Origin: Phycisphaerae bacterium
Lineage (GTDB): Bacteria > Planctomycetota > Phycisphaerae > JAJVII01
Length of the DNA: 42,666 nucleotides
Direction of reading: 5' to 3'
NCBI GenBank assembly: GCA_028706835.1
Contig: JAQTVL010000001.1
Span: 1-42,666 of the forward strand
In this document: piece by piece, positions 1,786 through 38,057 of the stretch
How positions within the stretch are numbered: the first letter of the stretch is position 1
How the letters are laid out: each line of letters opens with the position of its first letter
Translations under genes and position numbers: made by a program
Notes under the pieces: generated by a model
Seen by the model: the letters and a program-made list of their open reading frames with translations, nothing else
Told to the model about the DNA's origin: nothing
Database searches by the model: none

Positions 1786-3231
1786 CTAACCTGGGTTGGT
1801 CTGGCTCTTGGCCAGATCATCCCGATACATAAAAAACGCCGCTGCCTTCGGGTCCGACATCGCGATCACTCGCTCGGCCGCGCGCTTGGCTTCCTCCACC
1901 GGATCCGCTTCCGGGACCCGGATATACACGTTCTCGGTACGGGACTGGCCAGGTGTCACCACCGGTCGGTCGACCATCTTGACCACACCCGGCAATGGCG
2001 CAGCCGGAGCCTGGCCACCGAATCTGCCGACCACACGCCGTGCCAGCCTTCCTGCCAGCCACACCCCGATACCGGCCGCCGGAGACGACACGCCCAGCGC
2101 GACCAGGCCGGCGGTGAGCCAGGAGCCGGCGTCCACCTTGGCGGCCGATGCGGTGCCAGGGTCGGCTACGTTTTTCGGGTCGACGTTGCCCACTGTCTCA
2201 TGGGCGGCGCCGCTCCGGAGGCCTGCCGCCTGGGTGGCGCCAGCCGTCTCATGGAGCTTGGTCTCAATGACGTGAAACGCGGCCTCAAGCCCGTCAATGC
2301 GGGCTGATAGCCCTGGGATGGGGTCGGGCTTGTCGGGTTGCGTGGGCGACGGCTGCGGCGGAGCCGGCGTCTGGCCTTGGGCCTGGGGCAACGGTGTCGG
2401 GATCGGCTGGACCGGAAGCGTCGGCCACGGGTTTGTGCCGGGGGCCTGCTGGCCCGGCCGGGCGCCCTCGAGGTGCTGGCGCCACCGATCATCTTGCTCT
2501 TGACGGTAGGGCAAGAGTCGATACTGCGGCGCCGGGCAGCCGTTGGGACCGCAGCCGTTGGGACCGCACTGCACTTGCCGCTCCGCGGCCGCCCGGCAGA
2601 GTTGCCCGTAGAGCGACTGCACGCTCGAGGCGATCCCCTGACGGCTATTCAGCGTGCGTGCCCGCACCACGCCCACGATCCGCTCCCCTTCGGCGTCGAA
2701 CAGGGCCGAGCCGCTGCGGCCCATAGCCGGGGCGGGTACGAAACATAGATCGCCGCCGTCGTAGCCCAGGGCGTGCCCCTTCCAGCCGGTCGACCACGCA
2801 CCGCCGGCGCAGCCCACCGAGGTCAGTGTTTGGCCGGCCCCGACCACAAAGTCACGCGGCGCCAGCGGGATTGCCGGTGGCAGCGCGCCGCCGAAGTGCG
2901 ACTGATCGACGGCGATCACCGCGGCGTCGGTCTGGTCGTTGGCCACGCGCAGGACCACGACGCCCGGCAGGGGCGCCGACTGGTGGCCTTGTCGCCAGAA
3001 TTCGCACTCCACGCGGCGGGCATTGCCGACCACGTGGGCCGCCGTGAGCACATACACGGCCCCCTGGCTTCGTTCGAACACACAGCCGGTCCCCCGGCCG
3101 CCATCGGGCGCCGTGATCCGGCACGTGGCATCGATGCAGTCCGACATTGTGCCCGTTACCGGACACGCGGCCGCGGCAACGAGGATCGCAGCGGCGATCG
3201 CCGGCAACGCTCCGAGAACGGACCGGATCAT
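1786..3231 (-). CDS. trypsin-like serine protease with Pro-rich linker and C-terminal hydrophobic segment
   Basis: Signal-like N-terminus. LTAAHVV (His), DAAVIAV (Asp) and GRSGSALF (Ser) triad motifs typical of Trypsin_2-type proteases. P/Q-rich linker, then a hydrophobic stretch. AGGAGGAG SD. ATGA overlap with the upstream gene. Confidence 0.6.
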   Translation of the reverse strand: MIRSVLGALPAIAAAILVAAAACPVTGTMSDCIDATCRITAPDGGRGTGCVFERSQGAVYVLTAAHVVGNARRVECEFWRQGHQSAPLPGVVVLRVANDQTDAAVIAVDQSHFGGALPPAIPLAPRDFVVGAGQTLTSVGCAGGAWSTGWKGHALGYDGGDLCFVPAPAMGRSGSALFDAEGERIVGVVRARTLNSRQGIASSVQSLYGQLCRAAAERQVQCGPNGCGPNGCPAPQYRLLPYRQEQDDRWRQHLEGARPGQQAPGTNPWPTLPVQPIPTPLPQAQGQTPAPPQPSPTQPDKPDPIPGLSARIDGLEAAFHVIETKLHETAGATQAAGLRSGAAHETVGNVDPKNVADPGTASAAKVDAGSWLTAGLVALGVSSPAAGIGVWLAGRLARRVVGRFGGQAPAAPLPGVVKMVDRPVVTPGQSRTENVYIRVPEADPVEEAKRAAERVIAMSDPKAAAFFMYRDDLAKSQTNPG

Positions 3232-4999: not shown

Positions 5000-5698
5000 T
5001 CAGGCCGGGCGGCGGTCGACGGCGCGGATCGATTCCAAAAGCGCCGCCCGCTCCAAGGGCTGCAGCCGGAGCAGACGTCGTCGCCACCGCCTCTGGCGGC
5101 GGTGGATCCGCTCGCGCTCGCGGCGATCGCGGCCGAGGTATTGGTAATCATGGAGCTCCGTCGGCTCGGCGTAGTTCATCCAGATCACCTCGGTCGCCAG
5201 GGTGCCGCCGCGCGTCGTGACGCGATGGGTAAGCGTTCGCCAATCCCGCATGGCATCGGAATAGAGGTCCGAGGGATAGGAGCTGACCATCACCATACAG
5301 GACTGGGCCCTCAGCAGCTCGAGCAACGCCAGGTGCTGCCGGTCGGTCAGCTCGTGCTCGTACCGGTGGTGACTGGCCCGGGTCCCCAGCGGGTAAGGCG
5401 GGTCGGCGTAAATGAAAGAATCTGCTCGCAGCGTCGGGCCGAATTGGCGCAGCCACTCGGTGGCGCAGGCGTTCACGACCTCGAGCGTCGCCCGAATTGG
5501 CGGCGAGATCTGCGATTGCTTGCCGCCGAGCCTGGCGGCGGCGCCCGGGTCAAGCTCGACGGCGATCGACTTCATCGCCGGGCGCTTGCGGCGCAAAATG
5601 GCGGCGTCGCCGGCGAAGAGTTCGATATAGAGCCCGTGGGGTGGGATCTGGTTGATGATCCACTGGTAGGTCCCGTTGCCGGCCTTGCCGCCCATCAT
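5000..5698 (-). CDS. Dam-like DNA N6-adenine methyltransferase (D12 class)
   Basis: YQWIINQIPPHGLYIELFAGDAAIL (SAM-binding FxGxG-like motif) and FIYADPPYP (DPPY catalytic motif). Confidence 0.75.
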   Translation of the reverse strand: MMGGKAGNGTYQWIINQIPPHGLYIELFAGDAAILRRKRPAMKSIAVELDPGAAARLGGKQSQISPPIRATLEVVNACATEWLRQFGPTLRADSFIYADPPYPLGTRASHHRYEHELTDRQHLALLELLRAQSCMVMVSSYPSDLYSDAMRDWRTLTHRVTTRGGTLATEVIWMNYAEPTELHDYQYLGRDRRERERIHRRQRRWRRRLLRLQPLERAALLESIRAVDRRPA

Positions 5699-6261
5699 GG
5701 CGTCGTGGGCCTCCGTAGCGTGGACTCCTCTTTGGGCTCGGGCAGCGTGAACCGGTAAACGTCCTGGCCGCCCGGGCCGCGGCCCTTGTCGATATGCGCG
5801 AGCTGGAACCCGACAGCCCTGAAGAAAAGCTGCGAAAGCGTATCCCGCTCGGTCAGCATCACATGGAAGCCGCCCGGCATCCGGCCGACGTGCTCCTGCA
5901 GACCTTCGATCAGCGATCGGCCGACGCCGAGCCGGCGATCGTCGGGCAGGACCGCGATCCGGTCAATTACGATCAGCCGGGTCAGGCCAAATCCGGTCGG
6001 GTAGAACCACGCGAGGAGAGAGCCGCGCAGCCGGCCATTCTCCGCGTCGCCAATTCCAAGGGCATGGCTCCAGTCCTTGTCGAGCCGCCTCCGGATCTGG
6101 GCGATCGCGAGTGGTTGCTTGAAGCTCATCGCGTCGATGAGCTCGAAGTCCGCCCGCCAGGTCGACTTCGAGTTCTTGCGAAAATGATGCGGGGCGAGAC
6201 GCACGACCCGGGCCGGCCCGGGCGGGAAGAGTTCAAGATTTCGTTGCTTGTCGGGAATCAA
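5695..6261 (-). CDS. GNAT-family N-acetyltransferase
   Basis: IAVLPDDRRLGVGRSLIEGL matches the acetyl-CoA motif A (R-x-x-G-x-G). ATGA overlaps at both ends. Confidence 0.6.
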   Translation of the reverse strand: MIPDKQRNLELFPPGPARVVRLAPHHFRKNSKSTWRADFELIDAMSFKQPLAIAQIRRRLDKDWSHALGIGDAENGRLRGSLLAWFYPTGFGLTRLIVIDRIAVLPDDRRLGVGRSLIEGLQEHVGRMPGGFHVMLTERDTLSQLFFRAVGFQLAHIDKGRGPGGQDVYRFTLPEPKEESTLRRPTTP

Positions 6262-7150: not shown

Positions 7151-8869
7151 TCATCGGGCCCTCTTGGACTTGTTGAGCCGCAGCTCTTTCGGCAGGTCGA
7201 TCGACTTGTCGCCGGCGGTGCTCGCGTCGTCGCCCTCCGCGGGGATCCGGGCCAGGAATGTCTCGACGATCGCCTCCTTGCCCATCTCCGCGGTGATCTC
7301 CTTGACCTTCAGCTCCTTGGCCAGGGCGAGGAGCTGCTCCTTGTCGTGGAGCTCCCAATACCGCTCCGACAACGGGCCGGCCTGGTGATCGAGCCAGCAG
7401 GCCTCCAGGTCGACGTCCAGAGCGGCGGCGATCGCCGGCAGCTCGGCCGCCTCGAGATCTTCGCTCGGACCGTGCTTCTCGTCGTAGAACAGCGAGGCAA
7501 TCCACTGGCGAGCCAGCCGATCGACGTCGTTGTCGCTCACCTCGCCGGCGAGCAAAGTGACAAAGATGTTCGCCCGCCACTTGGTGGCCGCTGCGACCCG
7601 GATCCCGGCCGACTTGCAGAGCTCGGCCATTCGCTGCGACATCGACCAGTCGCCGTAATTCGCCGCGGCCAAGAGGACTCGGATGAATTGGCCCGTGCTG
7701 GCAAACCCTTCCGTCAGGATGGCCCGGCTGATCTCGCAGCGGAGCAATTCGTCGCGGAATTCCGATATCTTGCGGCGGTACTCCTCGGCGGCCGCCTTCG
7801 CCGCGGCTCGCTTCTCCGCGGGTGTGAGTTCCTTCTTCGTGGCGCGACCGGTTCTTGCCGCCTCCGATCGCTTCTTGTGCTTCTGTGTGGCCTCCCAGGT
7901 GGCGCGGTGGGCCTTCCAGAGCTTGTCGAAGAGCTTTACGTTGAGTGCCCGGCTCTCCGTTTTCCCGCCTGGGGCCGGGACATGGATCAGATCGAGGTCC
8001 TTGCGCTGCTCCTCGGTCGGCTTGAGCGGTGGGACCGAGCCGCCGGCCAGGCCGGAGTATTCGTGCTTGTTCAACGGCCGCGTGTGCCGCCAGAGGACTC
8101 CATCGATGGCTGCTTCGACGTCGTCGGCCGAGAGCGGCTCCTCGTCGTTTCGTTTCTTGAGCTCCTTACCGAGGTCCCCGAGCAGTTTGGGGTGCCCCTT
8201 GAAAGGCAGGATCTGCCGAGCGTGGGTGGCGGACATTTCCCCGGAAATGATCCGCTTCTGCCACTCGGCCGGCAGCTCCAGGAGCCGCAGGCGATTGGCC
8301 ACGTGGGGCTGGCTGACCCCAAGGTGGTCGGCCAAGGCCTGTTGCGTCGGGTAGTCGCCGGCGTCGAGCAGTTGCTTGTAGCCGATCGCCTCCTCGATCG
8401 CGTTGAGATCTTTGCGTTGAAGGTTCTCGAGGATCACGACCGCCCGGGCCTCGGCGTCAGTCGCATCGCGGATCTCGCAACGGACCTGGGTCAGGCCCGC
8501 CTTGAGGACCGCCCGGAGCCGCCGCTCGCCGGCGAGCAGCTCGTAGCGGTCGCCCTTGGGGCGCACGACCAGGGGCTCAATGAGCCCATGCTCCTCGATC
8601 GTCGCCGCCAGCGCGGCGAGATTCTCCGCACCGAAATCCCGCCGCGGCTGATACGGGCTGGCATCGATCAACCCCGGCGAGATATTCTTGGGCTCGACGT
8701 TCTCCGTGCGGACAGGACGTTTGGCCCGGGCCGCGGCGGCCATTTCACGGATCGTGTGCCCGTTGCGACACAGGGGCGCGTCCAATAGCGGATCGGCCGC
8801 CTGGCCGTTGTGCTTGCCCTCGCGAGAAGATCCGCGTCCGCGGACCTGCGCCAATTGTTTGCTAACCAT
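7151..8869 (-). CDS. ParB/Spo0J-like N-terminal-domain protein with long C-terminal extension
   Basis: GLIEPLVVRP...YELLAGERRLRA (ParB box) followed by the HTH QQALADHLGVSQPHVANRLRLLELP. AGGAGG lies 5 nt upstream of ATG 8869. Confidence 0.7.
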   Translation of the reverse strand: MVSKQLAQVRGRGSSREGKHNGQAADPLLDAPLCRNGHTIREMAAAARAKRPVRTENVEPKNISPGLIDASPYQPRRDFGAENLAALAATIEEHGLIEPLVVRPKGDRYELLAGERRLRAVLKAGLTQVRCEIRDATDAEARAVVILENLQRKDLNAIEEAIGYKQLLDAGDYPTQQALADHLGVSQPHVANRLRLLELPAEWQKRIISGEMSATHARQILPFKGHPKLLGDLGKELKKRNDEEPLSADDVEAAIDGVLWRHTRPLNKHEYSGLAGGSVPPLKPTEEQRKDLDLIHVPAPGGKTESRALNVKLFDKLWKAHRATWEATQKHKKRSEAARTGRATKKELTPAEKRAAAKAAAEEYRRKISEFRDELLRCEISRAILTEGFASTGQFIRVLLAAANYGDWSMSQRMAELCKSAGIRVAAATKWRANIFVTLLAGEVSDNDVDRLARQWIASLFYDEKHGPSEDLEAAELPAIAAALDVDLEACWLDHQAGPLSERYWELHDKEQLLALAKELKVKEITAEMGKEAIVETFLARIPAEGDDASTAGDKSIDLPKELRLNKSKRAR

Positions 8870-8896
8870 CACCGACCTCCTGAAAAAGGGGAAAGA

Positions 8897-9115
8897 CTAT
8901 CTCGCAACTCTCCACACCTTGGCCCGGTGCCACCGGGTCCCATCCCACCTCACTCGCTGCTGATCTCGCAGGCGCAGCAGCGCCCCGTAGATCGTCCGCT
9001 TCTCCCACCGGCCGGCCAGGATCCAGGCCAGGGCCGGCCCGCTGAGCCCCATCGCCGCCCTCGAGCAAGCGTCCAGGGCCGAATACACCACGGCGGTGCA
9101 GCCAGCGGATCTCAT
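8897..9115 (-). CDS. hypothetical small protein
   Basis: 72-aa ORF. Its ATG overlaps the stop of the upstream gene (ATGA). Confidence 0.4.
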   Translation of the reverse strand: MRSAGCTAVVYSALDACSRAAMGLSGPALAWILAGRWEKRTIYGALLRLRDQQRVRWDGTRWHRAKVWRVAR

Positions 9116-10185
9116 GCCTCGTGCACCTCCGCGTGCACCTCCGCGTCATTTGGTACCAGCGGCCGTGGCGGCCAGACCGAGCCGCAGAGCAAGGCCTCCC
9201 GGCCGTAGCGCTCGATTGCCCGATCGAGCGCCGCCCGGGCGTCCGGAAGGTATGGCCGCACTTTTCGGAATGCCCGTCGCGTTACGGTCGAATTGAAAAT
9301 CGCCACACGATTCCGCCGCACCGATTCCGCCGGCAGCCCAGTCGCGTAGGCCGCCGCCGCCAGGATGAACAGGAGATCCGCCTCCGTGTCGCCTATCGCC
9401 GGATCCAGGGCCGAGAGCTGGCATCGGAACCATTTGATCAGCGTGCCAACCTGCTCGAGATTCCGCAGAGCAAGTTTCCGAAACACGCCGCACGAGAACT
9501 CGGTGGTGCATGGCAGCGGGTTGATCCTCCGCGATCTGGCCTGCTGCCAAAACTCCGGAGCGGCGGGACCGGTCACCACGATCCCGCCGCATACCCCTCG
9601 TTTGCTCGCTCTGGGCCTCCCGTCCGAATCCATCGAAGGCGGGTCGGCCTCCGGCCCGGTACGGGTTTCAAAGAGTGATTCAAAGAGTAGGTTTTCCTTA
9701 TAGGGGTGTCCTTCAGGGACACCCCCGTGTCCTTCAGGGACACCCCCGTGTCCTTCAGGGACACCCGGTCCATGGGGGGCACGATCTCCGCCAGGCCGAC
9801 GCGAGAGGTCGAGCAGTCGACGCACGCCGTCCCAATCGATCCAGTAGCTGTTTGCTGCCTGGCCGCCCGAAACGTAAGGGTCCTCACGCACGCCGATCAG
9901 GCCGAATCGGGCAGCGCGGGCGACGACCTTTCGGGCTCCCTCGCGACTGCAACAGAGCCCGTAGGGCGCCGCCGCCAGTTCCTTGTAGCTCTTCTTGCAG
10001 ACCAGGCCGGCGGCGCCGCCCTTGGTCACGCGGAACACATACATGCAAAGCTGGGCCAGCCGGCAGTCTCCCGAGGCGACGCGCATGAGGGCCAGACCGA
10101 GGACGTTTTTCAACTCGTCGCCCGAGGCCTCGGCCAGGCCGAAAGGAAGCTGCTGCTGCCGACCGCCGTTTCCGGGTGAAGCCAT
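9112..10185 (-). CDS. putative DNA-binding / replication-initiation protein carrying internal iterons
   Basis: 357-aa ORF. The N-terminal region looks winged-helix-like, a weak call. The central linker GVPEGHG x3 is encoded by three 21-bp dyad repeats next to an A+T-rich patch. Function is inferred from this lambda-O-like layout only. Confidence 0.4.
   Translation of the reverse strand: MASPGNGGRQQQLPFGLAEASGDELKNVLGLALMRVASGDCRLAQLCMYVFRVTKGGAAGLVCKKSYKELAAAPYGLCCSREGARKVVARAARFGLIGVREDPYVSGGQAANSYWIDWDGVRRLLDLSRRPGGDRAPHGPGVPEGHGGVPEGHGGVPEGHPYKENLLFESLFETRTGPEADPPSMDSDGRPRASKRGVCGGIVVTGPAAPEFWQQARSRRINPLPCTTEFSCGVFRKLALRNLEQVGTLIKWFRCQLSALDPAIGDTEADLLFILAAAAYATGLPAESVRRNRVAIFNSTVTRRAFRKVRPYLPDARAALDRAIERYGREALLCGSVWPPRPLVPNDAEVHAEVHEA
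9667..9690. repeat. 12-bp direct repeat x2 (TTCAAAGAGTGA / TTCAAAGAGTAG) in an A+T-rich patch
   Basis: Read directly. Adjacent to the 21-bp repeats. This is the locally lowest-G+C stretch inside this CDS. Confidence 0.7.
9706..9768. repeat. three head-to-tail 21-bp repeats, each with dyad GTGTCC-N5-GGACAC (iteron-like)
   Basis: GTGTCCTTCAGGGACACCCCC at 9706, 9727 and 9748. The third copy ends ...CCCGG. Confidence 0.8.
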
Positions 10186-10215: not shown

Positions 10216-10974
10216 TCACGGCTCCCCGTAGAAGATCCGGGGCGGGTCGTCCACCAGGCCGGCGCTGAGCGTATTCGCGATGTCGTCCTGGGTGGACTGG
10301 ATCGCCGCCTCCAGGGCGTCGGGCTCGGGGCAGAGGTAGAAGACCTCGTTGGCCGGGTCGACGTCGAGGGTCATCCGGACGGATTTCTTCCAGATGATTC
10401 CCACCGATCGGTAGACGCGGATGTCGGCGGTGATCAGCTCGGGCAGGTCGGCGGTGCCAGAGACCTCCGCTTCCACGCTCCGGCCCAACGACTCTCGGCC
10501 GTGCTGGATGTTGGTCGTGCCGTCGCTGCGACGCTTGAAATCCAGCTTGCGAAACAAGGGGACCAGGTCCCCGGGCACCGCACCGACCAGGTCGTGACGC
10601 AGGAGGCGGATGATCCCCACCTGGTTCAATCGCTGCTCCGCTCGCAGCTTGCGCAGGCGCTCGAACTGCTCGGAGAATTGCAGCGGGAAAAAGACGCCGT
10701 CGCGCCGATACTCGTCGTCGATCAAGAGCGTGACGTTCGCCTCGGAATGCCAGACGGTGCCATGCTCGCCCCAACGCTCGCAGGCGCGGAGGAAGTCGTC
10801 CAGGGAGCCCACCCGGTGCGCCCGGTGGGCGGCGGGGAGCGCCAGCCCTTCGCGCATGCCCCCGGATTCGATGATCACATTGTCCGGGTCGCCGGGGATG
10901 GGGTGGATCTTCAGGCCGCTCGCGTCGACGGCCAAGGCCCTGATCTTCTCAAGGGTTTCGGGATGCAAAGACAT
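10216..10974 (-). CDS. hypothetical phage protein (possibly DUF2303/YfdQ-like)
   Basis: 252-aa ORF with AAAGGAA SD. The family guess rests on size, prophage early-region context and an N-terminal '...LEKIRALAV...' pattern only. Confidence 0.45.
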   Translation of the reverse strand: MSLHPETLEKIRALAVDASGLKIHPIPGDPDNVIIESGGMREGLALPAAHRAHRVGSLDDFLRACERWGEHGTVWHSEANVTLLIDDEYRRDGVFFPLQFSEQFERLRKLRAEQRLNQVGIIRLLRHDLVGAVPGDLVPLFRKLDFKRRSDGTTNIQHGRESLGRSVEAEVSGTADLPELITADIRVYRSVGIIWKKSVRMTLDVDPANEVFYLCPEPDALEAAIQSTQDDIANTLSAGLVDDPPRIFYGEP

Positions 10975-11022: not shown

Positions 11023-11397
11023 TCAGTTCTCGCCGGCGAACTTCTGCCGGGCGCGGCCATCCTCCTCGACGTCGCCGAAGGTGAGCTGCTCGACGTTGCT
11101 CGGGTCCTCGTCCGAGAAATACAGGCGGCCGCCGCTCTTCACCCCGAACGAGTAGACCTTGCTCCGCCGGGTCGGGATCTTATCGCGGATCTGAAACTTG
11201 CCGCGCACCCCCTCACACTTCCCGTCCTCGCCGCAGACCGGGGTGATCTCGGCCGAGAGCTCCAGCTTGCGCGGGCGCTCCTCGCCCGGCCGGTCCTCGC
11301 AATCGGCCACGATCCGTTTCATGGCCTGCTCGAACGCGGTCGCCACGCGGCCGCTGTCGAGGTTACGCAGTTCCTCCAATGTCAAAAATCGCAGCAT
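11023..11397 (-). CDS. hypothetical protein
   Basis: 124-aa ORF with AAAGGAG SD and ordinary composition. Confidence 0.5.
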   Translation of the reverse strand: MLRFLTLEELRNLDSGRVATAFEQAMKRIVADCEDRPGEERPRKLELSAEITPVCGEDGKCEGVRGKFQIRDKIPTRRSKVYSFGVKSGGRLYFSDEDPSNVEQLTFGDVEEDGRARQKFAGEN

Positions 11398-11724: not shown

Positions 11725-12141
11725 CTAAACCCCGGCGTCCGCGCACTGGCTGCACAAATCCGGCTCGACCCAGTGGCAACCGCCCTCGCAGGCGCAATCG
11801 TCGGTGCAGCCGCACTCCCGGCAGTAGGTCACACCCCGCCGCGCGGCGGCCGCCTTGCGAAGCCGCTTGAATGTTTCGCAGGCCGCTTCCTCGTCGAGTT
11901 CGACTGCCCCCCTGCGGATCGCTTCGCGGCGCTTGCCGGCCGTCAGGTCGTAGTGCCGTAGGGAACGGTCTTGAAACCAGGTCCGCCGCACGACCAACTT
12001 GTCGGCCATGGCGTGGAGCTCCTCGATCGAGTCGGCGACCAGGTGGCACCACAGGCCTCCGTTACGCCGAGCGACGGCCCGGGCTGCGGGAGCCGTGGAC
12101 TCGATCGGCCATTGGAAGAGCGGATCGACGTAGACGGCCAT
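11725..12141 (-). CDS. DUF4031-domain protein with C-terminal Cys-cluster
   Basis: MAVYVDPL...WCHLVADS..ELHAMA...RRTWFQ...HYDL matches the DUF4031 pattern. C-terminus CRECGCTDDCACEGGCHWVEPDLCSQC. GGAGGG SD before ATG 12141. Confidence 0.6.
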   Translation of the reverse strand: MAVYVDPLFQWPIESTAPAARAVARRNGGLWCHLVADSIEELHAMADKLVVRRTWFQDRSLRHYDLTAGKRREAIRRGAVELDEEAACETFKRLRKAAAARRGVTYCRECGCTDDCACEGGCHWVEPDLCSQCADAGV

Positions 12142-12142
12142 T

Positions 12143-12490
12143 TCATTCGCCCTCCTGGTCCGCGAAGGCATCCCGGAGGCGCATCCGCACGCGTTGGATC
12201 TCGTCGACGAGTTGGCCGATGATCGCTGCCGGGCTGAGATCCCGCAGATCGAACGGCGACCCCAGGCGGTCGCAGGCCGATTTCACCTGGGCCAGCAGTT
12301 CGTCGCGTTCAAGGATAACGGTCCGCATCGGGTGCTTCTCGCACCCGGCAATGTGCTTCGATAGCAGCTCGTGCTGCGATGCCGGAGTCCCCGGTGGGTA
12401 TTCGTGGCCGCAGTAGGCGCAGGTCAGGACGTTGCCCGCCGGCGGCCGATCCATCGGGCCGCGATAAGATTCGCTGACTGGTCCAGGCAT
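12143..12490 (-). CDS. hypothetical protein (CxxC ... HxxxC zinc-finger-like)
   Basis: 115-aa ORF with CGGAGAAA SD. Contains CAYCGHEY...HIAGCEKH. Confidence 0.5.
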   Translation of the reverse strand: MPGPVSESYRGPMDRPPAGNVLTCAYCGHEYPPGTPASQHELLSKHIAGCEKHPMRTVILERDELLAQVKSACDRLGSPFDLRDLSPAAIIGQLVDEIQRVRMRLRDAFADQEGE

Positions 12491-12528: not shown

Positions 12529-12601
12529 TGGGGGCGGCGGGACTCGAACCCGCAACCTCGAGGTTATGGGCCTCGCGAGCTGCCAATTGCTCTACGCCCC
12601 G
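12529..12601 (-). tRNA. tRNA, anticodon CAU, initiator-like but non-canonical (C1 opposite C72, C33)
   Basis: Hand-folded 73-nt cloverleaf. D stem GAGC/GCTC, anticodon stem CGAGG/CCTCG, loop CCCATAA, variable loop AGGTT, T arm GCGGG-TTCGAGT-CCCGC, acceptor positions 2-7 paired. No encoded CCA. Confidence 0.75.
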
Positions 12602-12794
12602 GGAGACACCGGAATGGAAGATCAGATTGGAGTCCTCGCACCTCCCGGCCCAGGGGGCCTGTTGAAAACGAAGCGGCGGCCCGGTGCCAACGTTTGCCCA
12701 GCCGGCCGGGCCGCCGGGCCGCCGCGCTCATCCATGGATCCGTCCCAAAAAGCCGCGATTCCACCGCGGCGCCAGACTGGTACCGAACAAGAAG

Positions 12795-12868
12795 TTGCGC
12801 GGGCGGGATTCGAACCCGCGACCTCCGGGGGGATGTGGCCCGGCGAGCGGCCGCCGCTCTTCCGCGCG
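12795..12868 (-). tRNA. initiator-tRNA-like gene with a 9-nt anticodon loop (CCACAUCCC), possibly a pseudogene
   Basis: Hand fold: C1 opposite A72, A73, A11:U24, stem CCGGG/CCCGG (G29-31:C39-41), variable loop AGGTC, T arm GCGGG-TTCGAAT-CCCGC. The loop is 9 nt with CAU at its centre. Confidence 0.6.
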
Positions 12869-13163
12869 TGAGGGATTCCTGGTTTCTTCCGTGTGCTCGG
12901 CTCGACACCTCCTTTCCTTGCAGCGTTCCTACTCAGCTCGCTCGTGGATCAAATTGGCGGCGGGAGGTCCCGTTAGGAGTCTTCGAGGACCGGGATACTC
13001 CCGCCGCCGGCAGCCGGACCCGATACCGTGCACGAGCTCGGGATCCATACCGCCAAAAGGGCCTTCCGGCCCCGTATGCAGCGCGCGGCGGCCGGGAACG
13101 GGCTTGGCCTGGCCGGCCGGGCCGCCGCGACTTTTTGTATTGCAGAAATTCATCATCGGTCTC

Positions 13164-14255
13164 TCAGAACAAGAGTTTCTGGCGAGGATCCGCCGTCTGC
13201 CGGGCCTTGGTCCGACGCTTGGCGGCGACCTCCTCGATCGCCCCGGCTGTCGCTCGCGGCGGGACGTAGTGGCCGCTGGTCATCGTCATGGCGGCGTGGC
13301 CGAGCTGCTTCTGGGCCGCGATCGGGTTGCCCTCGGCCAGGTCGCTGGCCAGCGCCTTGCGCAGGCCGTGGAAGCCGAATTGCCGATCGGCCGGGATGCC
13401 GGCCTTCTCGAGGAGCTGCTCGCGGATCGTGTCGAGGTGGCGCCGGCAGTGCGGCCAGGGGAAAACCAGCTCGCGGTCGGTGCGGATCGCCTGGATCGCC
13501 TCCCAGGCCTCGGCCGACACATAGAGTTTCAGGGCCTTGTGCCCCTTGATCGCTCCATACGGGATCTTGAGCCAATGACGGCCCTCCGGGTCCGTCGAGT
13601 GCCAAGCGTAGCGGATGGCCAGGGCCGACCCGATCCGGATGCCGACGTTGTAGATGTACACTATCAGACCCAACCACCAGGCCGAGGCCGCAACGCCGTC
13701 GATTCGCGGCGTGGTGGCGAACCGGCAGGCTCGCTTCCAGGCCTCGACCTCGTGGCCCTCGAATACGTCCTCCACCTCGTCGAGCCAGGCCGCGGGGCGC
13801 TGAAGATAGGGCGATTCGTCGAGCAGCCGCTTGGCCATCGGGTGGCGCCGATCCTTCGGGCCGGCCAGGTCGAGCACGTGCTGGAGGTGCACGCAGTGCT
13901 TGCGCACTGTGTTGACCGACAAAACCTCATGGCCCTCGCGCCCGGGCAGTCGCTTCAGCCGCTTGAGGAACTCCGCGCAGACCCACTCGTCGATTTCCTT
14001 GAGCGGCGGGTCGCCGGTCAGGTCATGCCAGTACTTGATAGTCTGGCCGTATTCGTAGAGGTTTCGCTCCGCGGCCCCGCCCGGCTCCATCACGGCCGGC
14101 CTGACGTAACGCTCGTAGAACTGACTCAAGCTCATCTCCGGCGAGAGCCCGTGCCGGATGTCGCTGTCGGCCGCGGCGGCCGCGGCCCGGAATAACCGAA
14201 TGAACGGCTGCGCCGCAGGCGGTTCTTTCTCTTGGCGTTTTGCTGGATGGCCCAT
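13164..14255 (-). CDS. int: tyrosine recombinase / phage integrase
   Basis: C-terminal FGFHGLRKALASDL ... LGHAAMTMTSGHY (R-H-R-Y catalytic signature region). Start moved to ATG 14255 (MGHPAKRQ), preceded by AGGAGAA. Confidence 0.8.
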   Translation of the reverse strand: MGHPAKRQEKEPPAAQPFIRLFRAAAAAADSDIRHGLSPEMSLSQFYERYVRPAVMEPGGAAERNLYEYGQTIKYWHDLTGDPPLKEIDEWVCAEFLKRLKRLPGREGHEVLSVNTVRKHCVHLQHVLDLAGPKDRRHPMAKRLLDESPYLQRPAAWLDEVEDVFEGHEVEAWKRACRFATTPRIDGVAASAWWLGLIVYIYNVGIRIGSALAIRYAWHSTDPEGRHWLKIPYGAIKGHKALKLYVSAEAWEAIQAIRTDRELVFPWPHCRRHLDTIREQLLEKAGIPADRQFGFHGLRKALASDLAEGNPIAAQKQLGHAAMTMTSGHYVPPRATAGAIEEVAAKRRTKARQTADPRQKLLF

Positions 14256-14311
14256 GTTCTGTTTTCTCCTGTGTTTTCCCGTGAAAAACCCAGGATCCGT
14301 CCCCAACGCTC

Positions 14312-14659
14312 CTATGACTTGGCGACCAGGCTCCGCAGCTTCGCGGCCGCCCGCAGAATCCTGCCCTCGACGTCGATGGGCAACCAGCCCCGCGACTTCC
14401 AGACGATCGCTTCCCGTTCGGACCACGGGCGCTGGATGATCGCCTCCCGATCGTTCCGCAGGTCGACGATCGCGACCGCGGAATTATCGATCAGCGTGAT
14501 CTCGGCCAATCGGATGGCGGTGTCATATCGGCTGCACCAGTCGATGAAGTCAGTTTCCCAGCCCTGCCAGCCCGGGCACCCCTGGCTGCCCGAAACCAAT
14601 ACGATCGCGAAGTTCTGAGTGCCGGTGGCCAACGGGTTGAGAGAGTCGATTCGACTCAT
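14312..14659 (-). CDS. hypothetical protein upstream of integrase
   Basis: 115 aa from ATG 14659 (MSRIDSLN), preceded by GAGGAGG. No HTH or excisionase pattern recognised. Confidence 0.5.
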   Translation of the reverse strand: MSRIDSLNPLATGTQNFAIVLVSGSQGCPGWQGWETDFIDWCSRYDTAIRLAEITLIDNSAVAIVDLRNDREAIIQRPWSEREAIVWKSRGWLPIDVEGRILRAAAKLRSLVAKS

Positions 14660-16158: not shown

Positions 16159-16932
16159 TCACTCGCCGATAACCGGCGGCGGCTTGGGTGGCACCTGGTC
16201 GGGAAGGACGATTCCGTCGACCTGAGCGTCCGGCCGGTAAAAGTACGCCAGCACGATCGGGATCGGAACGCGCCCGCCGACGAGGATCTTCTTGATGCTC
16301 GCCGACTGCGGGGAGCCCAGCTCGAGCCATTGGGCGACGACGGCGGCCGTATCGCAATCTTCCGGCACGAAGCCGATCTGCTCGCCGTTTTCAATTCGGA
16401 CTTCAACGGCGTTGGGGCTGAAAGCGTTTTCCCTGTCGCGGGCCAAATAGGCGCGGTCGCCCTCCCTGACCGATTTCCTGATGATATCTCCGCGCCCCTC
16501 GTAGTGAACGCCCGCGACCATAAAATCAAAGTCATCGACGGGTCTGGAGCGGAAGTATTCCTGCTTCTTACGTTCCTTTTCGCCCTCCTTGGCCAGCTTT
16601 TCACGCGACTTGATTTCGGCCTCGAGTGCCTTGCGATGGGCCGCGGCGACTCTGCGGGCGTCCGGTGGAAGAACGATCTCGATCGCCCGGTAGAGTTCCT
16701 TCTGCTCGTCGCGCGTGACCTTCCGATCGGCGACGATCCGGCTTACGGTTTCGAAGAGGTAATCCTTGGCGGGCAGGTCGGCTTCGCGATTGTCTCTGAG
16801 CCAGCGGACCAGCTCCTTGATCTCATCCAGCGAGAGCGTCCCGTCCTCGGTCATGCTCTGGCAGAGGACTAGGAGTTCCGCGCCGATCCCGCTCTCCCGC
16901 TGTGCCTTCGTAAGCGAAACCCGTTCTGGCAT
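16159..16932 (-). CDS. HIRAN-domain protein with TerB-like N-terminal domain and coiled-coil linker
   Basis: C-terminus FMVAGVHYEGRGDIIRKSVREGDRAYLARDRENAFSPNAVEVRIENGEQIGFVP matches the HIRAN pattern. The N-terminal LSLDEIKELVRWLRDN... TerB-like call is weak. Start at ATG 16932 after AGGAGG. Confidence 0.6.
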   Translation of the reverse strand: MPERVSLTKAQRESGIGAELLVLCQSMTEDGTLSLDEIKELVRWLRDNREADLPAKDYLFETVSRIVADRKVTRDEQKELYRAIEIVLPPDARRVAAAHRKALEAEIKSREKLAKEGEKERKKQEYFRSRPVDDFDFMVAGVHYEGRGDIIRKSVREGDRAYLARDRENAFSPNAVEVRIENGEQIGFVPEDCDTAAVVAQWLELGSPQSASIKKILVGGRVPIPIVLAYFYRPDAQVDGIVLPDQVPPKPPPVIGE

Positions 16933-17287
16933 AGCCGTCTGCCTCCTATGAAAAGGGTTCGCGATCCGGGGTACTGTTCTTACGTTCACATGCCGATAAA
17001 GAGAGGGGCGGGGTAGCCCCGCACTGTCATGCCGAGGCCCGCAGACCGCCCGCGCTGCGCCCGCTCCCCGCGCCGATCGGGCCCCGGGGGCCGAAGCCAA
17101 GGGTTTGCACGAAAATCCGCAACAACAACTGGCGAATCGCCCGCTGCTGAAGAGTTTTCCCCCTGGCTCCGGCCGCCGGGGCCCGATCTCTACGGACATT
17201 CAGTCCGTAGCTGTGCCTTCCACTCCCATCGGGTGGGCTTTCCCGCTACAATCCCAACCCCCGCCTAGCGGGGGTCTGTTCAAAAAG

Positions 17288-17329
17288 TGGGGCCGTCGGG
17301 GCTCGAACCCGAGACCTACGGATTAAAAG
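17288..17329 (-). pseudogene. 3' fragment of a tRNA-Lys(UUU) gene (candidate att core)
   Basis: CTTTTAA-TCCGT-AGGTC-TCGGG-TTCGAGC-CCCGA-CGGCCCC-A. The upstream 31 nt cannot form the D arm or the acceptor 5' strand. Confidence 0.7.
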
Positions 17330-17495
17330 GTCGCAGAGCCCGCCCGTCGTGGCCGCCGTGGGCCGACGCTCCGGGAACCGGACGGGGAATGGTGTACGGC
17401 CCGCAAAGGCCTCAGCATCGCTCTAATCGCTCGTGGGGCCGGCTGGGTTATTTCTGCCGAAATGGCAGGATCTGCGGCCGGGGCCGGGGCCGGCC

Positions 17496-20051: not shown

Positions 20052-23000
20052 CTACCCTCCGACCGTGACGCGCTCGAGCGGGTCGATCTTCGTGCCGTCG
20101 AGGTCCTCGAGGGTCACCGCCTCGGTACCGCGGCTGAAGTCGAGCAGGCCGTCGTCGAGCACCACGAATACGCCGCCATTTTCCGGCGTCTCGTAGTAGT
20201 AGCGCCCCGGGTCCTCGATGGTCGTATCGCCGGGGGCGCCGGCGAATTGGTAGACCTCGCCCTGGTGCAGCGTCATGGTGTCGTACGAGCAATAGAGCTC
20301 GAGGAAGCCGCCGTCGGCCACGATCGCCCCGATCGTGGCGCCCTCGCCGACGAGGAGCTGCACGTCGTTGACGGAGCCCTCGTTGCCGAGGTTGACGGAG
20401 CCGAACTCCGCCAGTTCGTCCGGCCGGACGGCAATCCCGACGTCGCCGCTCCGTATATACAGGGACGCGTCATCCGCCCCGCCGGTGAGCATCAGGGCCC
20501 GGCCGATATCCCAGCGCCTAGAGCCGGTGCCTTCGACGTAGACCTTGGTGTCGGGGTCCGCCGCGCCGAGATCGACCCGGGCAAACGGGCACCCCGGGCC
20601 GTCTCCAATTCCGAATCGCCAGATGGCGGCCTTGGCCTTGAGCGTCGTCGGGCGCGGCTGCATATAGCTTGGGCTGCCGTTGCCGATCTCGACGTCCGGC
20701 AGGCCGAGGCAGGCAGTATAGGAGGCCCACACGGTGACCGAGGCGAATTCCGGCCAGTCCTGCGGCAGGCCCCAGACGCAATCGACGTCGCGCCCCCAGA
20801 AGACGACGTGGTCTCCGGGCTCTGGGACGTGCCCGTCCGACCAATTCGCATCGCAATCCCAGCAATTCGGTCCGGCGTTGGCCACGACGGTTTCGAAACT
20901 CACGGTTGTCCCGGGGTCTCCCTCCTGGATCGTGGTCACGGTCGGCGCGTCGGCTTTGCAGGCCAGGTAGCTGGCGATCACGAATGCGTCGATCGCCTTG
21001 CTGGCCAGGGCACCGCCGAACGTCATGACCAGCGTGTCACGCGGGAATCCGGTGCCCGGGCTCGTGACCGAGACATTGCCGGACCCAAAGACCGACGCCG
21101 CGGCCGCGAGGGCCTCGGCCACCGAGCAGTTCCAGGGCAACTCGCCGGTTGGGCCGCCGCTGGCAGTGATTGTCCAGGTGCCCCTTTCCAGATGGTCGGG
21201 CGCGGTGAGCCTGTAAGAGGCATTAATGCCTGTGGTCCCGGGCACGAGGTCGCCCACCACCACATCGTTGGCGCTGCTGGGGCGGAGGACCCAGGAGGCC
21301 GTGGTCGATGCCGCCTGATCGGTCAGTCCATAGTCACCGCCCCACTCGACTCGGAGCGGCTCGGCGGGGGAGGGGCCCAGCGTGACGTGCGCAGAGCCCG
21401 GGCCGTAGACCGCCTCCAAGGCCGTCTCGAGCTGGGCGGCGCTCGAATTGTAGTTGACCTCGACCGACGAGCCATTGAACCAGAGCAGCCATGTCCCCGA
21501 ATCGGCGTTCGTCGTCAGATTGAACTCATGGACCTCGTTGCGTGCGGCAAGGCCCTTCGTCGTCTCGGTGACTCCACCAGTGACCGTAGGCGTGAGACTT
21601 GCTCCGTTGACCACCAAGAGCGGCTGATCGATGCCGGCCAGCGTGCCGACGAATGTGAACACCCACGGCGACGAACCTTCGACCATGATGTTGCCGGTGC
21701 CGACTGTGCCGATGGCCTCCAGGGCTCCCTTGAGTTGGGCTGCCGTCGCGTTCCAGGCGACCGCCGTCGTCGTCGCGCCGGAAAACGCGAGCGTAAACGT
21801 CCCGCCGGTGACGTTCGCAAAGAAAACCTCCTGAACCTCGGAGATACCCGCCGGGCTGCCGTGTACCTCCGTTGCGATCGTTGGTGTGTAACTGGCCGAG
21901 AGCGAGGAATTCGCGATGATCTGGGGCTGGTTGTCCGAGCCCAACGCAAGCCTGAACGCTATCGAGAAGCCAGAGTTGATCGGCCCGCCGGCAACATCCA
22001 CGTTCGCCCCACCGATACTGGTCAGGGCGCGCAGGGCGGCGACGACATCCGCCGCCTGTGCGTTCCAAGCCAGGTCACTCGTCGTGTAGTCCAAAAAGGT
22101 CAGAGAAAACGTGCCTCCGTCAGCCATCGTCGCCGCCGTCAGGGTCTGCCATTCGTCGATACCTGGGACACCTGCCTCGACTTCGGTGCTGTAGGCGGAT
22201 GGCGTCTGGATCGTCAAAGCCAGCGAGTTGATCGAGATCAGTGGCTGGGCGTGGCGTGCCCGGGCGCCGATGTACGTGATGGTCATCGCGCCAGGCGGCT
22301 CTCCAGCCATTTGGATGTTCCCGGTGCCAATCGTCGGGAGAGCCTCCAGCGCGCCCTGGATCTGCGCCTTTGTGACGTTCCACGCGAGAGCCGAGGTTGT
22401 TTCCCCATTGAACGCGAGAGAGTAGGTTCCGGCCACCGGCGCCGTGGCGAACCACAAGTAGTGGACCTCGTTGGTGCCTGTCGTGCCCTTGATCTCTTCG
22501 CTGACTCCGTATGTGGCCGGAGTACCCGTCAGAGGCCCGGAATAACCGAGTTGGGCCACGTTCGTATAGGCGAGCGTCCCGCAGAACGTCACGGTGAAAC
22601 CGGCGGCTGTCGTCCCCGACACGGTGACATTCCCCGTGCCGATCGTGGCCAGCGCCTGTAGCGCGGACTGGACCTGCGTCGAGTTCGCGTTCCAAGCGAG
22701 CGAAGACGTGGTCGCCGTCGAACCCCCGTTGGCGAAACTGAGCATGTACCATCCGCTGCTGACACCATTGAACGAGATCAACTGGACCTCGTTGGCCGGC
22801 GGGTCGGCCGTGTAGCCTTGCGCCGTGATGGCCACGGTGACTTGCGCAGTGCCATACACGGTGTCTTTTTCGAGATCAGGCTGATTTCCTGCCGTCGTGG
22901 CGGTCAACACGACTGGAGCCGTGCCGAGCGGTCCTCCAGTTGCCGTCCAATATGCCTCGCCAAAGTACGCCGCATTCACTCGCTCTGCCACGATCGCCGC

Positions 23001-25016: not shown

Positions 25017-25053
25017 TGGTCATGTCCAGTGGTCAGTGGTCAGTGTCCAGTGG
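25017..25053. repeat. heptamer element, left arm only (GTCCAGTGGTCAGTGGTCAGTGTCCAGTGGTCAG)
   Basis: Fills the whole 37-nt spacer between the distal-tail-gene stop and the fibre ATG. Confidence 0.7.
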
Positions 25054-27696: not shown

Positions 27697-27770
27697 CAGT
27701 GTCCAGTGGCTAGTGGTCAGTGGTCAGGTCCAGTGTTCAGTTTCTTTCTGGCCACCGGCCACTGGCCACT
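27697..27770. repeat. heptamer-built imperfect hairpin (AGTGKYC)n - T-rich loop - (CYGGCCA)n
   Basis: Arms 27697-27740 and 27748-27770. 19 Watson-Crick pairs out of 23 in a hand pairing. Confidence 0.75.
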
Positions 27771-31923: not shown

Positions 31924-31998
31924 CAGTGTCCTGTGGTCAGTGGCCAGTGTTCAGTGTTCAGTTTCCTTCTGGCCACTGGCCACCGGCCACTGGCCACT
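31924..31998. repeat. heptamer-built imperfect hairpin (same family as 27697-27770)
   Basis: CAGTGTC CTGTGGT CAGTGGC CAGTGTT CAGTGTT CAG - TTTCCTT - CTGGCCA CTGGCCA CCGGCCA CTGGCCA CT. Confidence 0.75.
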
Positions 31999-33091: not shown

Positions 33092-34000
33092 TCACGCGTT
33101 TGTCGGGATCGACCTCAGAATCAGGCTGAAGGCCGGCATGTTCGAGTTGGCCCCCTGGGTCACCGTGGCGGTGACCGCCTCGCCGGCGGTGAGGATCGAA
33201 TAGGTCCCGCTGAGCGCCCCGAGGTCCTCGTAGTCGCTGGTGGGCGGCTGAGTCTCGGTGTTGTACGTCTTGGTGACGATCGTGTTCCCGGCCAGGTCCT
33301 TGATGGTCACCACGCAGGTGTTGTCGTCGTCGATCCCGGCCGGCGCCCCTTCGGTGAGGATTCCCACCGAGGTCAGGGTGCAGGCCCGCGGGTGGACGAA
33401 GATCGGCCGGGCGGCGATATCCACCCCGGCCCCCAGGTCCTCGACGTGAGCGATGACGATCTGCTCCTGGTGAGCCGCGTTAAGGGTCGCGGCGCCGTTG
33501 GCGGCCAGGGTCACGTCCCCGCTCACCGCCACCTCCTCGTACTTCGAGCCGTCGGCCACGAGGATCCGGCCGGCCGTGTGGGCCACGGTGCCCACGTCCG
33601 ACAGGTCGTCGGTGCCCATGGTGTCCGCGTCGTTGGCCGAGCGGAGAAGGATCTCGACGGTCCCGACGGTGGTCCCGGCGGTCTCGAGCGTCCAGCCGGC
33701 AAAGGTGTTGCCGCTAGCGGTGCTCGTCAGGGCCCCGCTCAGGGCGGTCCCGCCCACCGGGCTGCCGTCGGCATCCCAATAGACGGCGGCGCCGACCGAG
33801 CTCAAATTGCTGGAATCCTTGGGGAACTTCATGCGCCCATTGATTGCCAGCGAGCCCTTGACGTTGGCCGCGATGTCGAGCTTGGCCACGCCGACGAGCT
33901 TCCCTTGCACGACGACGTCGCCGGCGGTGACCGCCGAGCCCGGGGTGTGGGGGATCACCTCGGCGCCGGTGGCGACGAATTCGACAGGAGTCTGTGCCAT
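33092..34000 (-). CDS. DUF2190-type head decoration/cement protein with C-terminal extension
   Basis: N-terminus ...AVTAGDVVVQGKLVGVAKLDIAANVKGSLAINGRMKFPK...VGAAVYWD matches the DUF2190 pattern. Immediately follows the capsid gene. Confidence 0.6.
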   Translation of the reverse strand: MAQTPVEFVATGAEVIPHTPGSAVTAGDVVVQGKLVGVAKLDIAANVKGSLAINGRMKFPKDSSNLSSVGAAVYWDADGSPVGGTALSGALTSTASGNTFAGWTLETAGTTVGTVEILLRSANDADTMGTDDLSDVGTVAHTAGRILVADGSKYEEVAVSGDVTLAANGAATLNAAHQEQIVIAHVEDLGAGVDIAARPIFVHPRACTLTSVGILTEGAPAGIDDDNTCVVTIKDLAGNTIVTKTYNTETQPPTSDYEDLGALSGTYSILTAGEAVTATVTQGANSNMPAFSLILRSIPTNA

Positions 34001-37709: not shown

Positions 37710-37713
37710 GAAG

Positions 37714-37789
37714 CAGTGGTCAGTGGCCGGTGTCCGGTGTTTAGTTGCCGGTGTTCCTTCTGGCCACCGGCCACTGGCCACTGGCCACT
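37714..37789. repeat. heptamer-built imperfect hairpin (family 1)
   Basis: Left arm 37714-37759. Right arm CTGGCCA CCGGCCA CTGGCCA CTGGCCA CT at 37760-37789, followed by TTTTGTTT. Confidence 0.75.
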
Positions 37790-37795
37790 TTTGTT

Positions 37796-37981
37796 TCACA
37801 CGGTTCCCCCGGGGCGGATGCGGCCGATGCGGATCGGCAGGCCGGTGGCGGTGCTCGCCGCGGCCGCCTTCTTCGCAACGTACTGGTCGTACTCGATCTG
37901 CTCCCGCAGCGAATGCTGCTCGACGACGTTTCCGTCGACGGCGACGCGTACGGGCGCGGCGGCATTTTCCTCAAGCGACAT
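37796..37981 (-). CDS. gpW-like head-tail joining protein
   Basis: 61 aa immediately upstream of the portal. VRVAVDGNVVEQHSLREQIEY...IRIGRIRPGG resembles lambda W in size, position and pattern. Confidence 0.5.
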   Translation of the reverse strand: MSLEENAAAPVRVAVDGNVVEQHSLREQIEYDQYVAKKAAAASTATGLPIRIGRIRPGGTV

Positions 37982-37987
37982 GCGGCG

Positions 37988-38057
37988 AGTGTCCAGTGGT
38001 TAGTGGTCAGTGGCCGGTGATCGATTTTCTGGCCAGTGGCCACCGGCCACCGGCACT
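37988..38057. repeat. heptamer-built imperfect hairpin (family 1)
   Basis: AGTGTCC AGTGGTT AGTGGTC AGTGGCC GGTG - ATCGATTTT - CTGGCCA GTGGCCA CCGGCCA CCGGCACT. Confidence 0.75.

Follow-up and report, generated by a model that had tools for sequence, protein, structure and literature searches.

We analysed a 42,666-base stretch of DNA (hereafter the window; contig JAQTVL010000001.1 of the Phycisphaerae bacterium assembly GCA_028706835.1) that carries two tRNA genes with the anticodon CAU just downstream of a tyrosine integrase gene. This window represents the genome of a temperate tailed phage and was binned with a Phycisphaerae metagenome-assembled genome (MAG). The two genes, tRNA-A (73 nt, 12529..12601, read from 12601 to 12529) and tRNA-B (74 nt, 12795..12868, read from 12868 to 12795), are both on the minus strand. 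The explanation that we favour overall, at a probability of about 45%, is that tRNA-A is a working variant of an initiator tRNA and tRNA-B a tRNA-shaped RNA that probably does not decode, both carried as accessory cargo between the integrase gene and the early-gene block. The evidence for it consists of the sequence and fold of the two genes, their location among phage genes, their relatedness to other phage tRNAs, compensated changes in tRNA-A, an upstream motif shared between the genes, and a terminator-like hairpin behind tRNA-B. An earlier sequence-only reading of this DNA had folded both tRNAs; its coordinates and every base that it named were right.

tRNA-A, a variant initiator-type tRNA gene

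tRNA-A reads CGGGGCG UA GAGC AAUUGGCA GCUC G CGAGG CCCAUAA CCUCG AGGUU GCGGG UUCGAGU CCCGC CGCCCCC A. It was detected by ARAGORN, by the Rfam tRNA model RF00005 (59.2 bits, E 1.9e-10; gathering score 29), and by R1 (89.8 bits), a covariance model from 34 phage-borne initiator-type tRNAs. The training set of R1 was picked by the T-arm/3′-acceptor pattern of tRNA-A and tRNA-B, so its scores for these two genes are partly circular. ARAGORN typed both genes as tRNA-Met(CAT), and the cloverleaf was the minimum-free-energy (MFE) fold for each.

The general fold and core of a tRNA are complete in tRNA-A, with U8, A14, G18G19, A21 and the T loop all present. Its initiator features include A73, A11:U24 and the absence of a Watson-Crick pair at 1:72, where C1xC72 takes the place of the classical C1xA72. 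Two of the three G:C pairs expected at 29-31:39-41 are present (G30:C40 and G31:C39), with A29:U41 as the third pair. The CAU anticodon lies in a 7-nt loop, CCCAUAA, yet position 33 is C instead of U33. Position 3:70 is a determinant for the E. coli formyltransferase; among the formylation determinants, G2:C71 is as expected, and 3:70 is G:C (G3:C70) instead of C:G. CCA is not encoded.

Among 93 tRNA(CAU) genes that we gathered, the closest to tRNA-A was the canonical initiator tRNA of a related phage, L078, which agrees with it at 64 of 73 positions and does not differ from it in the D arm, variable loop or T arm. The nine differences comprise three compensated pairs (from L078 to tRNA-A, 3:70 C:G to G:C, 28:42 C:G to G:C, and 29:41 G:C to A:U) and three single changes (position 9, U33 to C, and A72 to C), and no stem of tRNA-A is weakened relative to L078. 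In a comparison of eight related sequences, 99.4% of the pair cells were standard and double changes were seen at 8 of the 20 pairs. Since the differences from L078 are confined to compensated pairs and positions 9, 33 and 72, this comparison indicates that the fold of tRNA-A is under selection, and the gene is very probably functional. The sequence-only reading had described tRNA-A as remodelled. This held to the extent that 3:70, 29:41, 33 and 72 are changed with the fold kept, all of them positions read by proteins; the reference for these changes is the L078 phage tRNA.

We surveyed 45 unique tRNA(CAU) genes from mobile elements with an unpaired 1:72, within a sample that covered only A72 or C72 and a single T-arm type. 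The 1:72 combination was C1xA72 in 21, C1xC72 in 10, A1xC72 in 6, U1xC72 in 4 and A1xA72 in 4, so that C72 was found in 20 of the 45. The bacterial initiator loop CUCAUAA is near-invariant; it was present in 29 of the surveyed genes, and 16 had a variant loop. CCCAUAA, with C33, occurred in two of them, L116 and L068, and therefore in three different backbones when the window is included. L116 has the same whole anticodon arm as tRNA-A (CGAGGCCCAUAACCUCG) together with C1xC72. The C1xC72 combination is also present in the initiator-type tRNAs of the related phages L004 and L117. The loop of the human initiator tRNA is CCCAUAA, the same as in tRNA-A. A separate search with a D-arm pattern recovered only an unrelated tRNA group. 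On L116, an IMG/VR contig, the C33/C1xC72 tRNA is immediately followed at 3135-3160 by another T arm, an orphan that carries an acceptor-like tail (GUCGCCGGUUCGAGUCCGGCCCGCC) and may be an attachment site abutting the tRNA.

These variants might reflect nothing beyond supply. The L078 and tRNA-A types would then just raise the amount of initiator tRNA in infection or lysogeny, and the variant positions would be neutral drift that the host machinery tolerates, with no link to defence. We regard this explanation as quite possible, though short of an even chance. It agrees with the fully canonical initiator tRNA of L078 at the same place and with the ordinary tRNA-fMet genes annotated in phage records. 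It also agrees with the occurrence of A29:U41 in working initiators: this pair is natural in alpha-proteobacteria and some mycoplasmas and works in E. coli, although at some cost (PMC5389676). The cytoplasmic initiator tRNAs (tRNAiMet) of metazoans and plants naturally have C33, while all bacterial initiators examined had U33 and the change U33C stopped E. coli TsaBCDE from forming N6-threonylcarbamoyladenosine (t6A) in vitro (PMC8887486). tRNA-A combines these two natural variations, but the cellular initiators that carry them belong to other lineages. What speaks against simple supplementation is the frequency of variant loops (16 of 45) and the recurrence of CCCAUAA in three backbones, although drift in a dispensable copy could also yield this pattern. 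Supplementation also leaves tRNA-B unexplained.

tRNA-B, a tRNA-shaped gene with intact stems and an altered core

tRNA-B reads CGCGCGG AA GAGC GGCGGCC GCUC G CCGGG CCACAUCCC CCCGG AGGUC GCGGG UUCGAAU CCCGC CCGCGCA A. It was recognised by ARAGORN, by its MFE fold and by R1, at a partly circular 67.5 bits and with a single base inserted on either side of the anticodon loop. The classical initiator set is complete: C1xA72, A73, G2:C71, C3:G70, A11:U24, G29-31:C39-41 and CAU. The variable loop is AGGUC, the T arm is canonical, CCA is not encoded, and all 20 stem pairs are Watson-Crick with no unpaired stem position.

The unpaired parts are different. The anticodon loop has 9 nt (CCACAUCCC), with CAU at its centre and with neither U33 nor a purine at 37. 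In the core, A8, G14 and C21 replace U8, A14 and A21, position 9 is A, and the D loop has 7 nt. The sequence-only reading had omitted the loss of U8, A14 and A21. In the family of 34 phage initiator sequences, U8 and A14 are invariant and A21 is at least 90% conserved. Altogether, 4 of the 20 unpaired positions conserved in the family are altered and 2 nt are inserted. The D stem can extend to 6 bp through G14:C21 and G15:C20, and the MFE cloverleaf with this 6-bp D stem makes up 74% of the ensemble.

Both genes are preceded by GGAGGTG on the minus strand, at 12906..12912 for tRNA-B and at 12639..12645 for tRNA-A, and the gap between motif and tRNA is exactly 37 nt in both cases. GGAGGTG occurs only 7 times on the minus strand of the 42.7 kb. 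The copy before tRNA-B is part of GGAAAGGAGGTG, a candidate expression signal that is identical in 12 of 12 positions upstream of the L078 tRNA (about 741-752 in L078). GAGGTG or GGTG is found at similar distances upstream of the tRNAs of L004 and L117. By its position and upstream sequence, tRNA-B is best viewed as the counterpart of the canonical L078 tRNA. On the other side of the gene, 25 nt past its end, an intrinsic-terminator-like hairpin (GCCGCGGUGGAAUCGCGGC, followed by UUUUU) lies at 12752..12770 on the minus strand. A second GC-rich hairpin on that strand, with 12-bp arms followed by UUCGUUUU, lies between tRNA-B and tRNA-A at 12673..12725. A related copy at 13084-13129, between the integrase gene and tRNA-B, has its T run on the plus strand. 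These two copies (12-13-bp arms, with a common 24-nt block) bracket tRNA-B.

From the motif, the terminator and the intact stems we predict an expressed tRNA-B RNA whose structure is maintained, rather than plain decay. The opposite view is that tRNA-B is a dead paralogue, the leftover of an integrase-proximal initiator gene that became dispensable once tRNA-A was present, so that only tRNA-A matters. tRNA-B is under the Rfam tRNA threshold, has lost U8, A14, A21 and U33, and has 2 nt inserted in its anticodon loop; the run of six C beside CAU could, as read from the sequence, stem from slippage. It is also unique, with no conserved homologue found in IMG/VR or the JGI metagenomes. A decaying pseudogene, as the sequence-only reading had suggested, would be expected to show damage over stems and loops alike and loss of its expression signals. 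Instead, every stem pair is Watson-Crick despite at least six changes at conserved unpaired positions; the chance that six or more random substitutions miss all 40 paired of 73 positions is (33/73)^6, about 0.01, in a calculation made post hoc. The changes A14G and A21C together make an extra G:C pair, which is unexpected under random decay. The match of GGAAAGGAGGTG with L078, the same motif spacing as in tRNA-A, and a terminator of its own also disfavour a relic. We therefore hold a dead paralogue to be rather unlikely, and rate a functional non-decoding tRNA-shaped RNA, as predicted from sequence, a little above it.

The anticodon arm of tRNA-B had one exact match in IMG/VR (L003), inside a coding region without a tRNA, and we took this to be a chance match. 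A degenerate pattern for an initiator-like arm with a 9-nt loop had no match in IMG/VR and matched a single contig in the JGI metagenomes, L124 (Ga0224507_10087874; 1.2 kb). The tRNA there (476-550) has the arm CCGGG AUCCAUGCA CCCGG, U1:A72 and a G5xA68 mismatch. Its loop sequence is unrelated to that of tRNA-B, and a small phage-like open reading frame (ORF) adjoins it. With nothing in IMG/VR and one unrelated contig in the JGI metagenomes, there is no sign of a family of initiators with a 9-nt loop, and tRNA-B is an unexplained variant.

Engineered tRNAs with 9-nt anticodon loops read five-base codons. For tRNA-B, a five-base anticodon (ACAUC reading GAUGU) was considered and rejected: the required context was present at 2 of 32 gene starts, the chance level. 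The proposal that the two tRNAs are dedicated initiators for the late genes found no support: GAUGU is at chance level, many genes have GGAG-type sites, and the late genes have a different repeated motif in common instead. tRNAs with expanded loops, both these engineered ones and the 8-nt frameshift suppressors such as SufB2, resemble tRNA-B in that additional loop nucleotides flank an intact triplet within a cloverleaf. Unlike tRNA-B, they keep a U33-like geometry and a normal core, and they act in elongation. The species 1 and 2 RNAs of phage T4 are tRNA-shaped stable RNAs in a phage tRNA cluster, adjoining true tRNAs. tRNA-B is like them in being phage-encoded, tRNA-shaped and beside a true tRNA, a likeness that we take as a lead only.

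tRNA genes as exchangeable cargo in related phages

Genes past tRNA-A (11725-12171, 11023-11397, 10216-10974, 9112-10185 and the ParB gene) have homologues in related contigs, namely L004, L005-L007 and L010, whose integrases are 31-46% identical to that of the window, and L117, which is linked through ParB. A peptide-pattern search for relatives of the integrase in IMG/VR found none, and a protein search returned relatives at 45% identity or less. The slot behind the integrase gene differs among these phages. The order in L078 is integrase, terminator, canonical initiator tRNA (C1xA72, GGG:CCC, CUCAUAA) and CsrA, while in L005-L007 the integrase gene is directly followed by CsrA, and the contigs L005-L010 have no tRNA. 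L004 has one initiator-type tRNA 1.6 kb past the integrase gene, and L117 has one ahead of its early genes. Given this variation of the slot, the tRNA is exchangeable cargo of the phage group. The CsrA genes were located at 7185-7376 and 10722-10925 in L005, at 1911-2108 and 5884-6069 in L007, and at about 400-595 in L078; the window, unlike these relatives, has no CsrA gene. Cargo with an effect on translation initiation seems to accumulate in this group.

Initiator-type tRNAs are also carried by other phages. Those of vB_Sm_QDWS359 (annotated as tRNA-fMet), PaMx74 (unannotated) and phages of Janthinobacterium, Xanthomonas, Variovorax and Nocardia have an unpaired 1:72, A11:U24 and a G:C-rich anticodon stem, and are 80-84% identical to tRNA-A or tRNA-B over 60-76 nt. 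Altered loops are present in the Pseudomonas phage PaMx74 (UUCAUAC) and in the Stenotrophomonas phage vB_Sm_QDWS359 (UUCAUAA). These phages differ from the one described here in being lytic-type siphoviruses of Proteobacteria with the tRNA beside terminase and nucleotide-reductase genes. Here, two copies, one with C1xC72 and C33 and the other with a 9-nt loop, are in a post-integrase slot of a temperate Planctomycetota phage. Phage-borne initiator tRNAs are thus already known, and only tRNA-B is unusual.

Possible roles of the two tRNAs

According to the explanation that we favour, both genes would be derived from a bacterial-type initiator tRNA. tRNA-A would be transcribed by the host RNA polymerase, trimmed by RNase P and 3′ nucleases, and given its CCA by the host enzyme. 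It would then be charged by methionyl-tRNA synthetase through CAU and A73 and enter the ribosomal P site, supplying initiator tRNA to the infected or lysogenic cell. Its changes could plausibly make it insensitive to a factor of the host or of a competitor, either an anticodon-loop nuclease (for example, of the VapC type) or a modification enzyme. tRNA-B would be expressed and folded as a cloverleaf. It is probably non-decoding because its core (8, 14 and 21) and its anticodon loop are rebuilt, and would most likely be a tRNA-shaped RNA that acts as a mimic or decoy for a factor binding initiator tRNA, or as a processing element. Expression, charging and any defence-related role are inferred.

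Several points weigh against this reading. GGAGGTG resembles a Shine-Dalgarno sequence, here without a coding ORF after it, and no function is on record for the motif; no sigma-70-type promoter was seen near the tRNA genes. Lacking both U8 and A14 would make tRNA-B very unusual among functional tRNAs and fits normal tRNA function poorly. ARAGORN accepted both folds and RF00005 that of tRNA-A, but RF00005 did not list tRNA-B, either at the gathering score or at E<=10 on a 96-base stretch. In the search of that stretch against Rfam, only the T arm of tRNA-B was matched, as a tmRNA fragment. No relative with the oddities of tRNA-B is present in IMG/VR, so that conservation of the odd parts cannot be demonstrated. 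As for tRNA-A, its remodelling is gauged on the L078 copy, and the host may itself carry C72, C33 or A29:U41. The canonical L078 tRNA is an example of plain supply without remodelling within this same phage group.

Phage tRNAs with substitutions in the anticodon loop have been proposed to evade anticodon nucleases (van den Berg et al. 2023, PMC10264068), and tRNAs of phage T5 have been studied against the effectors of PARIS and retrons (PMC11464382, PMC11555353). The tRNAs described here are like them in being phage copies of a host-type tRNA in which the anticodon loop or its immediate surroundings are altered. They are unlike them in that the changes of tRNA-A include the acceptor end (72 and 3:70). 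Shigella phages generally avoid encoding tRNA-fMet (PMC10264068).

A stronger form of the same idea would make the two genes a two-part counter-defence, with tRNA-B as a purpose-built initiator mimic or decoy that sponges an initiator-directed nuclease or binding factor, and tRNA-A as the resistant working copy. tRNA-B would then keep all four stems and every element read by initiator-specific proteins, while the rewired core (A8, G14:C21, 6-bp D stem) and the 9-nt loop would bar its use or its cutting; it would be made from its own promoter-like motif and terminator. Nuclease escape and decoy action are each plausible as predictions from the sequence; as a combined system we consider them improbable.

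Integration site

Another possibility is that one of the two genes is there for integration, with tRNA-B (or tRNA-A) as the phage attachment site (attP) for the host tRNAfMet and tRNA-A as the complementing copy. In tRNA-dependent lysogeny, the phage tRNA must be cognate to the disrupted host tRNA (Guerrero-Bustamante & Hatfull 2024, PMC10865867), and the present locus has similar components: a temperate phage, a tyrosine integrase of a tRNA-targeting family, and a complete tRNA gene near it. Gaia, a phage from the Hatfull laboratory, has the cognate tRNA directly downstream of its integrase gene. Moreover, the aberrant positions of tRNA-B are all 5′ of position 39, and its 3′ part is canonical.

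A better candidate for attP was found elsewhere in the window. An orphan tRNA fragment on the minus strand (17288..17346; R1, 27.4 bits, E 3e-4) lies in the intergenic gap before the HIRAN gene, 2.9 kb upstream of the integrase gene. Only the part from 17330 to 17288 is tRNA-like; it reads CUUUUAA UCCGU AGGUC UCGGG UUCGAGC CCCGA CGGCCCC A (CUUUUAAUCCGUAGGUCUCGGGUUCGAGCCCCGACGGCCCCA) and covers the 3′ half of a tRNA-Lys(UUU), with the anticodon loop at one end and the discriminator at the other. This part is the likely attP core, judged by its form. In blastn searches the fragment matched phage tRNA-Lys genes and the attP region of mycobacteriophage TribleTrouble, which reportedly integrates in tRNA-Lys-TTT. 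The 3′ end of the candidate attP had no match in IMG/VR. A GC hairpin, ACCCCCGC-UAG-GCGGGGGU, follows the fragment at about 17250-17275.

Comparable orphan fragments of a T arm and 3′ end are located near the integrase gene in L004, L005, L007 and L078. In L009, an integrated relative on a 246-kb host contig, such a 3′ fragment (11239-11270) lies between the integrase gene and host genes (RMF, Macro and beta-lactamase). Its place at the prophage junction indicates that this integrase family targets tRNA genes. Given the classical attP form of the fragment from 17330 to 17288, neither tRNA-A nor tRNA-B is needed to explain integration.

Other observations also disagree with an attachment site in the tRNA genes. 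The attP candidate is of the Lys(UUU) isotype and is not cognate to the two CAU tRNAs of the phage, which sets the phage apart from tRNA-dependent lysogeny; since its whole 3′ half is kept, integration there would leave the host with a rebuilt tRNA. Among 185,579 species genomes, a collection that does not include the source MAG, the 3′-terminal 22 nt of tRNA-B matched only 4 tRNA arrays of Gaiellaceae/Actinomycetes and no Planctomycetota sequence. In the usual layout, as reportedly described by Williams (2002), the integrase gene ends up beside the rebuilt tRNA; the integrase gene 5′ of tRNA-B is the opposite of this layout. We consider an attachment-site role for tRNA-A or tRNA-B very improbable. 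The four MAGs with the matching arrays (L120-L123, Gaiellaceae/Actinomycetes) have dense arrays of 17-23 tRNA genes, and their tRNA(CAU) has the acceptor stem of tRNA-B, an unpaired 1:72 in which A72 faces C or A, and a CUCAUGA or UUCAUGA loop.

The idea that the tRNAs are ordinary host genes bordering a prophage, or that host and phage DNA were mis-assembled, can be dismissed despite the binning of the contig in a bacterial MAG, as there are more than 12 kb of phage genes on each side, on a single strand and syntenic with other phage contigs, and no gene of host type was seen along the window. The sequence-only reading was thus sound in regarding the genes as phage-borne and not as an integration target: synteny on both sides, relatives with one tRNA or none, and the separate tRNA-Lys attP candidate all agree. 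It was also correct that the tRNA genes point the same way as the phage genes (minus strand), lie downstream of the integrase gene and have phage genes on both flanks.

The phage genome

The G+C content of the window is 66%, and all genes that show a coding-type GC pattern are on the minus strand. Phage genes only are present across the whole contig, and the contig ends show no terminal direct repeat. The structural genes, all on the minus strand, encode a large terminase (40391-42562), a lambda-type portal (36159-37799), a fused protease/major capsid protein (34093-36162), a decoration protein (33092-34000), and head-tail joining and tail proteins, including one of 1654 amino acids (20052-25016). 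They are accompanied on the same strand by genes for a HIRAN-domain protein (16159-17199) and the tyrosine integrase (PF00589, phrog_1; 13164..14426 as the longest ORF, 321 amino acids in the NCBI call); tRNA-B starts 295 nt past the integrase stop.

The first protein gene past tRNA-A (12143..12490, minus) encodes a 115-amino-acid Cys/His-rich protein and stands at the head of the early-gene block, for which related phages show synteny. Like the integrase, this protein is 100% identical to a protein of an NCBI Phycisphaerae MAG. Homologues of this small protein were also found in unrelated phages without tRNAs. Beyond the tRNA genes, the minus strand has a block of small genes, including one for a DUF4031 protein, a gene for a ParB-like protein (7151-8872), and genes for HNH, GNAT, HTH, DUF1353 and trypsin-like proteins. 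No nuclease or tRNA-repair genes are present in the window. AtaT-type toxins acetylate Met-tRNAfMet, and we considered the GNAT acetyltransferase of the early region (5695-6261, minus) as a toxin of the AtaT/TacT type; it gave generic GNAT matches only, with no similarity to AtaT or TacT. An ORF of 114 codons (12564-12908, minus) begins at the GTG of GGAGGTG, crosses tRNA-B and stops in the anticodon loop of tRNA-A. We rejected it as a gene, since its GC content is flat by codon position (0.70/0.70/0.63).

A tandem heptamer motif, GACCACTGACCACTGGACA, was noticed on the minus strand at 25023-25041, 27700-27725, 31927-31959, 37990-38008 and 39122-39147, with 9 matches (three mismatches or fewer) against 0.01 expected. 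It ends 6 nt before the ATG at the three late genes that we checked (starts 25016, 27693 and 31920), all without GGAG sites, and may be a late promoter or translation signal.

Significance

Phage tRNAs are now viewed as counter-measures to tRNA-cutting defences, and the experimental cases are elongators (Lys, Tyr and others). In translation, no other single point is as sensitive as the initiator tRNA, which VapC-type toxins are known to target. The present locus shows a temperate Planctomycetota phage lineage with initiator-type tRNAs as exchangeable cargo on the integrase side. If tRNA-B is a relic, the locus would be ordinary phage tRNA cargo; if it is a decoy, it would represent a new kind of RNA-based anti-defence. 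The series from the canonical tRNA of L078 through the variant tRNA-A (C72, C33 and A29:U41) to the rebuilt tRNA-B (9-nt loop) provides a natural test of which changes an initiator tRNA tolerates, and the same series would allow protection against nucleases or modification enzymes to be tested.

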